From Candidatus Cloacimonadales bacterium (GTDB taxonomy: Bacteria > Cloacimonadota > Cloacimonadia > Cloacimonadales > JAFGVF01), in assembly GCA_963663475.2 (NCBI GenBank), contig CAXXJV010000001.1, positions 1,856,001-1,920,000 on the forward strand: DNA of 64,000 nucleotides. The letters are read 5' to 3'. The position numbers and the translations under genes were made by a program. The stretch's first letter is position 1. Each line of letters opens with the position of its first letter. The notes under the pieces are model-generated. The model was given only the letters and a program-made list of their open reading frames with translations. It was not told where the DNA came from and ran no database searches. Below are positions 48,454 to 49,507 of the stretch, in pieces.

Positions 48454-48803
48454 GGGGGTGCCACGGTTTCGACAGGGGTAAGTGAGCTTTGTGATGCATG
48501 TCGAGAATCTTATCTGACTCGTTAAACATGATGGAATTAAATTTAAATGCAAACGAAAATTACGCTTTAGCTGCTTAAGACCGGCTACACCCTCCTGAAC
48601 CTGGTCGTTCGGTGATGGACAGGGTGTCATACTGAATGACTAGATTGAGGCTATGCAGATAACCTCTTTCGAAACTCATCTGCTGGCATCGAATGATTTC
48701 TGATTGCCTTGTAATTCGATGTAAGAACATAAGACAACTAAACATGTAGATTTGCTTTGTAAGCTATCTTTGGACGCGGGTTCGACTCCCGCCACCTCCA
48801 CCA
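48454..48803 (+). ncRNA. ssrA: tmRNA, tag peptide ANENYALAA* (48549-48578)
   Basis: 5' GGGGGTG...TTCGAC; tag ORF gcaaacgaaaattacgctttagctgcttaa; 3' GGGTTCGACTCCCGCCACCTCCACCA. Confidence 0.97.
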
Positions 48804-49190
48804 GTCTTCGAAATGAACGAAGTGAATAAGAAGACTGACACGGCGTAGCATCTTTAGATGCGAAGACGGTCTTAGATTTATATTGCGTTATTCGTTCATT
48901 ACTACGCCTAGGCAGGCCAGGTTATGGGTCTGCAAATTAGTAATAAATAGAGATTATAAATATTGTTAACTAGATAGTGAATGAGAAGACTGACACGGCG
49001 TAGCATCTTTAGATGCGAAGACGGTCTTAGATTTATATTGCGTGGTTCGTTCATTACTACGCCTAGGCAGGCCAGGTTATGGGTCTGCAAATTAGTAATA
49101 AATAGAGATTATAAATATTGTTAACTAGATAGTGAATGAGAAGACTGATTTTAGTTACTAGATTCGTTCATTACTACGCCTAGGCAGGCC
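48804..49190 (+). repeat. Structured tandem repeat, 155-bp period (units start at 48821 and 48976; internally deleted third unit at 49131)
   Basis: Units 1 and 2 differ at 3 positions; the third keeps agtgaatgagaagactga and ttcgttcattactacgcctaggcaggcc. Confidence 0.93.
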
Positions 49191-49267
49191 AATCTGAGTT
49201 TGCTATGTGTTTTGTATATTTTGTAATAAATGGTTATTATTATTTTTAGAAAAAGAGAGTAGGTTGT

Positions 49268-49507
49268 ATGTATTATGTTTATATTTTAAAAAGTATCAAT
49301 TATCCAGATAAATATTATACAGGTTATTCAACCGATTTAAAAAAGAGAATCCAAAAACACAATTATGGAGAAGTACCTTCAACCACAAAATATAAACCTT
49401 GGGAAATGCATTGTTATTTCGCTTTTCCATCCCAAGAAAAAGCAATAGCCTTCGAGAAATACCTTAAAACACATTCAGGACGAGCCTTTGCGTGTAAGCA
49501 TTTTTAA
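49268..49507 (+). CDS. Stand-alone GIY-YIG nuclease
   Basis: YYVYIL...YYTGYSTDLKKRIQKHN...KPW...FEKYLK. Confidence 0.92.
   Translation: MYYVYILKSINYPDKYYTGYSTDLKKRIQKHNYGEVPSTTKYKPWEMHCYFAFPSQEKAIAFEKYLKTHSGRAFACKHF

Follow-up and report, generated by a model that had tools for sequence, protein, structure and literature searches.

The closest described counterpart of the locus analysed here is the SsnA/NTS system, in which SsnA cuts single-stranded DNA 5' of its cognate hairpin and acts on neither double-stranded DNA nor RNA; SsnA tunes transformation, and the main text of the report suggests an IS-like origin for Ssn/NTS (Chenal et al. 2025, PMC11893778). The window, a 64,000-nucleotide stretch of DNA from a Candidatus Cloacimonadales bacterium, carries directly behind its tmRNA gene (ssrA) a cassette of two predicted hairpins and a small GIY-YIG nuclease gene, for which the first-pass annotation had made no comparison with SsnA. 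Like the Ssn/NTS(SRM) system as presented in the main text of PMC11893778, the cassette ties a small, stand-alone, single-domain GIY-YIG gene to oriented hairpin repeats of its own that have a short 5' foot. A partial repeat often lies past the stop codon in both systems, in our case in many of the homologue loci examined. The differences concern the protein, the repeats and their number. Four Ssn-type proteins of 93–97 aa, picked with a sequence motif, flanked on both sides by NTS-like or CGTC-type repeats and exclusive of the N. meningitidis SsnA itself, form their own branch (support 98), which places the window nuclease outside the Ssn (cd10448) clade; they share 30–37% identity with it over the matched part and have a C-terminal extension that it lacks. 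Flanking NTS/SRM repeats, which combine a CGTC foot with a palindrome, are replaced by a different, inverted pair of hairpins with a GTA/GAA internal loop and no CGTC foot. The module occurs in 1–5 exact pattern matches per genome (five genomes) and is fixed to the tRNA/tmRNA CCA, whereas NTS can number up to hundreds (PMC11893778, main text). The cassette would work like Ssn/SRM, yet it fails two defining Ssn features, clade and repeat type.

The other comparable systems share fewer features. The nuclease belongs to the GIY-YIG superfamily and to the stand-alone Slx1-like/UPF0213 branch (Dunin-Horkawicz et al. 2006, PMC1564403), with which it shares a minimal domain free of auxiliary parts; however, the available part of that article gives no hairpin or tRNA-gene context, and the module-linked proteins form a branch of their own. 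REP/REPIN/BIME sequences and their RAYT enzymes, as covered in the available part of Di Nocera et al. (2013, PMC3733652), likewise combine inverted pairs of short hairpins, tandem clusters, gene-less copies and a linked enzyme acting on single-stranded DNA, but the cassette enzyme is of the GIY-YIG rather than the HUH type, GTAG is part of an internal loop rather than a 5' tag, copy number is low and a single type of target is used. The cassette thus has neither the 5' GTAG/CGTC tag, the high copy number nor the RAYT partner of REP/REPIN-RAYT, and the features of insertion sequences and of tRNA-targeting integrative elements are also absent from it. SegB-type enzymes are double-strand DNA cutters and larger modular proteins. 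T4 SegB, in the available part of PMC2988022, is comparable as a GIY-YIG gene that lies among tRNA genes and spreads by recombination, but it is phage-borne and has no cognate hairpin pair, whereas the module was matched only once in the viral collection.

No Rfam family matched over the module in the window, at the loci of 12 relatives or at 20 of the 120 listed pattern loci, which agrees with the first-pass remark that no named family was known. The literature searched, with subscription journals and several supplements outside its coverage, contained no description of a tRNA/tmRNA-end hairpin and GIY-YIG cassette; the terms tRNA and tmRNA are absent from the main text of PMC11893778, and GIY is absent from two 2026 genome-language-model preprints in the parts other than their supplements. 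Two candidate motifs, Acido-Lenti-1 and Flavo-1, are unrelated to the module in the sequences given in the available part of PMC2864571. A third, a "COG2827 RNA motif", was found neither in the literature search nor in the main text of PMC5737381, the supplement of which could hold a related motif.

Module anatomy at the ssrA end

The intact tmRNA gene (48454–48803, plus strand) is the host gene of the cassette and terminates in ACCA at 48803, and the module, about 115 nt in length, begins flush with it at 48804, exactly where the first-pass annotation had put its start; this junction is conserved in relatives. The CCA itself (48801–48803), read on the minus strand, is part of hairpin H1 (48801–48918, predicted to fold on the minus strand), in which 48801–48821 pairs with 48891–48912 around a GTA/GAA internal loop, with a 5' foot at 48913–48918. 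At the window locus the H1 loop encloses hairpin H2 (48837–48871, predicted to fold on the plus strand), which consists of three pairs, one bulged base, four pairs, a GTA/GAA loop and a variable stem-loop. H2 is homologous to H1 in inverted orientation, and both follow a common plan of a short basal stem, one bulged base, four pairs, GTA/GAA or GAA/GAA and a variable stem-loop. Across elements H2 is positioned either inside the H1 loop, the nested form seen here, or after H1, the sequential form.

Block X (48802–48821), which begins with the CA of the tRNA/tmRNA end, and its complement Z' (48830–48837) form a near-perfect palindrome on the plus strand (48802–48837). All complementarities listed in the first-pass annotation are present: CAGTCTTC (48802–48809) is complementary to GAAGACTG (48830–48837) at a spacing of 20 nt, and AATGAACGAA (48812–48821) to TTCGTTCATT (48891–48900). 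GGCGTAG (48842–48848) likewise pairs with CTACGCC (48902–48908), and the inner hairpin GCATC-TTTA-GATGC, with TTTA as the H2 loop of the window, has GTA/GAA on its flanks. The pseudoknot that had been read from these pairings is rejected, since both use 48802–48821 and are therefore alternatives; block X pairs either with Z' or with the 3' block; the latter pairing gives H1 and spans a TTC/TAC mismatch, which is GTA/GAA when read on the minus strand, so that the palindrome competes with H1 for one 5' segment. Single-sequence RNA folding of the full module is no better than that of shuffles (z −0.8 to −1.3), and single-sequence DNA folding is marginal only (z −2.1). The support for the predicted structure comes from comparison and not from single-sequence folding.

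Covariation, which the first-pass annotation had proposed as a check, was assessed by an anchored analysis of 39 nested elements against 1000 shuffles, in which kinship is ignored, and slid controls. All three helices covary beyond every shuffle and slid control. The H1 arm has 223 Watson–Crick cells of 273 and 62 compensatory cells (shuffle maxima 171 and 30; slid registers 44–116), X:Z' has 153 of 195 with 44 compensatory (maxima 115 and 24), and H2, the 3' partner of which was chosen for best pairing, has 366 of 390 with 71 compensatory (maxima 295 and 30). Between sequence types the three bases 3' of the CCA change jointly with both partner blocks, while the CCA-facing TG(G) is constant. 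GG faces the CC of the tRNA in 49 of the 50 elements that could be parsed (15 loci did not parse), and the terminal A faces T (38) or C (12), with the G.T wobble arising on the minus strand only.

The two hairpins differ in the strand that carries their loop features. GTA/GAA or GAA/GAA loops read on the plus strand in H2 and on the minus strand in H1. C(GNA)G triloops lend stability to DNA hairpins, and GNA triloops are found on the plus strand in 24 of 73 distinct H2 hairpins and on the minus strand in none, although this H2 signal is mainly proteobacterial (17/32 vs 7/41 elsewhere); in H1 of 31 sequential elements they are found on the minus strand in 18 and on the plus strand in two. Only four of the 73 H2 loops are GNRA tetraloops and none is UUCG. 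The H2 wobble counts do not favour the plus strand (G.T 10 vs A.C 8; in a second count, 2 vs 7). Because a tRNA transcript contains one strand only and the hairpins are of opposite polarity, H1 and H2 quite probably represent structures of single-stranded DNA, which fits the pattern best.

The nuclease gene (49268–49507, plus strand) starts 76 nt past the third repeat unit, close to the 80 nt first estimated, and encodes a 79-aa, single-domain, Slx1/UPF0213-like protein that matches PF01541 with an E value of 2.4e-16 (60.2 bits; cut-off 22.6). Y5, Y17, G19, R27, H31 and E63 are all present and are invariant in 8/8 aligned proteins. The best PDB matches are UPF0213 protein BH0048 (1ZG2, E 1.2e-8) and Slx1, NCBIfam has no model for the nuclease, and the protein is a minimal domain with neither a UvrC nor a homing-enzyme extension. 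In four divergent gene pairs dN/dS is 0.06–0.12, and the closest pair differs by one synonymous and two non-synonymous changes only. Internal stops and truncations of the gene recur, and gene-less copies of the module are common. The source genome (3.3 Mb, two contigs) has one such nuclease gene and one full module.

ssrA has no terminator-like site behind it, as the first-pass annotation had observed, the lone site found (49183–49204) being at chance level. In contigs of RNA runs, repeat pieces are present at low depth in two of four runs of one study, and no contig bridges the tmRNA to the repeat or covers the nuclease gene, a pattern compatible with expression and with its absence alike. 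On the minus strand, each linker of the repeat array has a sigma70-like promoter match (10/12; 48953–48981 and 49108–49136) aimed antisense into the hairpins and the tmRNA.

Distribution at tRNA and tmRNA ends

The family was approached from the DNA side with an inner-hairpin pattern that includes no tRNA or protein sequence, searched in one genome per species. At least 120 loci matched, and the following figures apply among the matches listed. The module starts flush with a CCA, at a tRNA/tmRNA-type end behind a T-arm, in 101 of the 120 listed loci, of which 99 were called by script, ARAGORN placing a gene end at 0/+1 in 86 of these, and two are full tRNAs recognised by eye. The other 19 comprise eight with a CCA but no T-arm ahead of them (tRNA-end remnants in most cases), one after GCA, three at contig ends, three that lack the 5' block and four chance matches in coding sequence. 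A homologous GIY-YIG gene lies 3' of the module in 48 of the 113 listed loci with at least 300 nt downstream and in 30 of the 74 with 900 nt, and never on the opposite strand or upstream among those 113, so that the enrichment which the first-pass annotation had asked about, 3' of tRNA/tmRNA genes and 5' of GIY-YIG genes, is borne out on both counts. Sixteen phyla are named among the listed loci, or about 15 given that the Actinomycetota entries are apparently chance matches only; 67 of the 120 are from Pseudomonadota, largely kin of Bradyrhizobium, and the loci are therefore not independent.

The targets among the matches listed are tmRNA and the tRNAs for Ala, Tyr, Met, Val, Pro, Arg, Thr, Lys, Ser, His, Glu and Gly, together with a tRNA class with a GC anticodon to which no amino acid was assigned. 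They differ in sequence apart from the CCA, and CCACCA is found in 27 of 50 distinct target ends vs 9 of 42 in the source genome. Where the CCA is not gene-encoded, the junction shifts to the C-C-A of the acceptor itself and the T-arm is then 22 nt away rather than 25, which indicates that the genomic triplet is what matters. Two module copies (L116 and L167) lie off tRNA ends within short simple repeats, L116 with a short direct repeat on both sides. A record titled Bordetella parapertussis (L081) contains a Bradyrhizobium-like tRNA-Ala cassette, the protein of which groups with those of Bradyrhizobium, and is probably a mis-binned contig.

From the protein side, a nuclease match is present in 71 of 232 genomes of the phylum, and the best 30 loci and 40 further regions of about 140 matches were examined. 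A tRNA/tmRNA end and the module lie upstream in 29 of the 30 closest homologues (own locus included), with a tRNA/tmRNA called by ARAGORN in 27 and a tmRNA 3' end recognised by eye in two; the last is cut by the contig start, with the hairpin still visible. Whole hairpin and gene units are duplicated in tandem at three loci (L055, L058, L075), and tandem arrays recur in independent genomes. In a tree of 120 proteins, built by a quick method on 81 columns and used for the main branch only, one branch (87 rows, SH-aLRT 96) contains every module-linked protein: 79 automatically labelled module proteins and eight with a module, a variant or a cut piece upon inspection. The module was found in none of the 33 rows outside this branch, a result that is partly circular because many rows were collected via the module or the query. 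Proteins of the branch end in FExYLKxxxGxxF, and more distant Slx1-like proteins have other genomic contexts.

Three further groups of GIY-YIG genes were seen among these loci. Another Slx1-like clade from Cloacimonadota (L262–L269, L271, L273, L275, L278–L280, L283) seems to be inserted within coding sequences unrelated to it; its gene is bordered on either side by short conserved ends, and the whole resembles a separate mobile mini-element. A second clade (L270, L272, L276, L277, L281, L282) is flanked by tRNA-Ser 5' fragments that have been duplicated, and in L281 the gene itself is repeated in tandem; in L284–L286 and L201 the genes are enclosed by tRNA-Asn or tRNA-Asp genes and by repeated 3' fragments of tRNAs.

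Tandem copies and turnover

The 155-nt unit is present twice in the window (48821–48975 and 48976–49130; 98% identity), the copies differing at 48828, 48889 and 48890, and a third unit without its middle part retains the terminal blocks, all as first described. The first unit ends in an AT-rich linker of 56 nt (48920–48975, plus strand), which is found only in same-genus relatives, in G006 and in the second copy of G003, and is not conserved beyond the genus. The second unit (plus strand), a recent duplication, consists of Z', H2 at 48992–49026, the 3' block at 49046–49074 and the linker, without block X. The third (49131–49191, plus strand) is degenerate, with Z' and the 3' block retained and H2 deleted, and is present in G006 too. 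Copy 1 is the sole complete module at the locus because copies 2 and 3 lack the 5' block. The same-genus genomes form a series, with one unit and then the gene in G003, one unit, the linker and a degenerate unit in G006, and two units and a degenerate unit in the window. Copy 2 shares the bases of G003 at the three differing positions, and the changes therefore arose in copy 1. These private changes (48828 and 48889–48890) jointly create a new complementary hexamer pair, which suggests a template-switch correction within the hairpin.

The first-pass concern that the duplication might be an assembly artefact is countered by the three differences between the copies and by a unitig unique to the copy 1/copy 2 junction in all three sequencing runs, which may be the source sample of the assembly itself. 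The repeat unitig has approximately 1.6–1.75 times the flank depth in two of the runs, where the junction unitig is at about flank depth, and 0.6–0.7 times in the third (same organism code). A metagenome contig from another study lacks one 155-nt unit. The 155-nt duplication is real, recent and strain-variable, and the tandem array is a recent strain-level event and not the core of the system. Across the family, direct repeats within 600 nt of the junction were found in 11/64 and 8/28 loci vs 2/25 and 1/17 control flanks, an overall enrichment that is modest (19/92 vs 3/42).

Occupancy of individual sites varies between close relatives. At ssrA, G000, G003 and G006 of the genus have the module, G002 has a remnant, and G001, G004 and G005 lack it. 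At the orthologous tRNA-Ala(GGC) of the same genus, G002, G003 and G004 have type A and G006 has a type-B array; the source genome has there, flush with the CCA, a decayed type-B hairpin (C2:335035–335080) that is 81% like the G006 array and has no nuclease gene. Within one alphaproteobacterial family the same tRNA-Ala site has type A, type C, hairpins only or nothing. The comparison for empty ssrA sites that the first-pass annotation had recommended yielded no clean empty allele: G001, G004 and G005 have other inserts in place of the cassette, the empty alphaproteobacterial sites are too diverged, and no empty/filled pair with alignable flanks was found among the same-genus and alphaproteobacterial sites. 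A second module is present behind a duplicated tmRNA 3' end in both G003 and G005. In G005 it lies on a separate contig; in G003 it closes an island-like stretch on the side away from ssrA, about 9.4 kb downstream of that gene. By translation, this G003 island (L032:4599–10852) apparently encodes two DNA methyltransferases and an McrBC-like pair, and it ends at the duplicated tmRNA end and module. No duplication of the tmRNA end was found past the nuclease gene in the window. The cassette contains no transposase or integrase gene, and neither a target duplication nor a defined right end was found.

Interpretation of the cassette

The comparisons above demonstrate that the junction is flush with the CCA, that the module is linked to one nuclease clade, that the stems covary, that the hairpins have opposite-strand polarity and that cassette types turn over at orthologous sites. 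On balance, it is probable that this widespread tRNA/tmRNA-CCA cassette, with its two inverted hairpins and small GIY-YIG gene, is a selfish DNA element, the nuclease of which would bind and nick its own hairpins in single-stranded DNA. While the DNA is transiently single-stranded, H1 and H2 are predicted to form on opposite strands, and the nuclease, by analogy with SsnA, would recognise the GTA/GAA stem and cut a few bases 5' of the foot. H1 would be complete only where the cassette abuts a genomic CCA, and this need for the host CCA would explain the invariant junction. Recombinational repair of nicks could yield tandem copies like those at 48821–49191, and repair via the homology shared among tRNA 3' ends (T-arm, CCACCA) could copy the cassette to other tRNA/tmRNA genes, while islands that integrate at ssrA may ferry it between cells. 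Transcription reading through from the tRNA/tmRNA promoter probably accounts for expression of the nuclease gene. To our knowledge, GIY-YIG nucleases have no strand-transfer or strand-joining activity, so insertion would have to rely on host repair. We count against the selfish-element reading the low copy number, the single viral match, the modest tandem enrichment, the skew of the listed loci towards Pseudomonadota, the H2 wobble counts, the TTTA loop of the window's H2 and the failure to find a target duplication, a defined right end or a clean empty/filled pair. Possible, though doubtful, is the stronger proposal of a transposase-free minimal element in which a 79-aa single-strand nuclease and a hairpin completed by the target CCA would suffice for precise insertion at any tRNA/tmRNA 3' end. 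This would amount to site-specific mobility of a new kind in many bacterial phyla, and to a new sequence- and structure-specific family of single-strand DNA nucleases with several natural classes of hairpin/enzyme specificity (types A, B and C).

The first-pass annotation had inferred a GIY-YIG-linked cis element at tRNA-like 3' ends, acting as DNA or RNA; the association, the covariation and the recurrent tandem copies uphold the link, and the RNA-nuclease option is weakened because the two hairpins fold on opposite strands. At the RNA level, the module would act as a structured trailer on the 3' side of the tRNA/tmRNA transcript, or else as antisense RNA, and the nuclease would bind or cut it for autoregulation or control of the tRNA end. 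GUA/GAA is an RNA loop-E-type motif, the module is always flush and co-oriented with a highly transcribed RNA gene with no terminator between them, and H2 and X:Z', which covers the last two bases of the CCA, can both form in the sense transcript. However, the purine loop, triloop and wobble of H1 are on the strand missing from that transcript, and the scarcity of GNRA (4/73) and absence of UUCG among the H2 loops also speak against RNA; the promoter-like sites on the minus strand of the linkers, which would suit an antisense RNA, are genus-specific, and such matches are common in the region (17 vs 9.8 ± 3.2). With SsnA inactive on RNA as well (PMC11893778, main text), we regard an RNA-level system as improbable. 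It is unlikely, too, that the pair is a domesticated guard, kept by the host or by islands to cut single-stranded DNA at tRNA/ssrA attachment sites, tuning integration or recombination and spreading as a passenger only. Second copies behind duplicated tmRNA 3' ends (the far edge of the G003 island and another contig in G005), several pattern matches adjoining tRNA-end remnants, purifying selection on the gene, long residence at tRNA-Ala in one family and the precedent of transformation tuning by SsnA (PMC11893778, main text) would all suit such a guard, but three of six same-genus relatives lack the cassette at ssrA, it is nearly absent from viral contigs, and the frequent pseudogenes and the way types displace one another at a single site are more in keeping with a parasite.

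A free-standing homing endonuclease that makes a double-strand cut in the empty tRNA/ssrA allele, the hairpins being by-products or protection of the filled site, has a precedent in T4 SegB, a GIY-YIG enzyme of a tRNA cluster with intron-less homing (PMC2988022, available part), and would accord with the conserved target and the pattern of gain and decay. This is very unlikely for the cassette, as 79 aa leave no room for a DNA-binding domain, the nearest structures are Slx1/UPF0213 and not homing enzymes, the targets are unlike in sequence except for the CCA, and the strict conservation and covariation of two hairpins would be unexplained. Chance neighbourhood or an assembly artefact, to which the weak single-sequence folding and the contig that skips one 155-nt unit might point, is exceedingly improbable at the window and already refuted for the family, given the association counts from both the DNA and protein sides, tandem arrays in independent genomes, the three differences between copies and, in two runs possibly of the source sample, the raised depth of the repeat unitig with the junction unitig near flank depth.

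If the preferred reading of a selfish, hairpin-nicking element holds, the module would be a candidate substrate for the proteins of a large, stand-alone Slx1-like GIY-YIG clade, and the cassette would extend the Ssn principle of a tiny nuclease with a cognate single-stranded hairpin to a second clade and a different hairpin. An exact CCA junction at 13 or more kinds of tRNA and at tmRNA would represent a targeting rule beyond those of integrases or IS elements. Genomic islands land mainly at tRNA and ssrA ends, and a resident nuclease could therefore affect island traffic. Complete cassettes are present in culturable Bradyrhizobium and Rhodopseudomonas.

A separate neighbour of the cassette is located at 49591–49834 of the window, where two GTAG-tagged, REP-like hairpins (49591–49614 and 49811–49834) surround a C-terminal RAYT fragment (ORF 49602–49808; NF047646, E 8.4e-9). 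In G004, the start of a longer RAYT-like ORF lies 3' of ssrA in place of the cassette.
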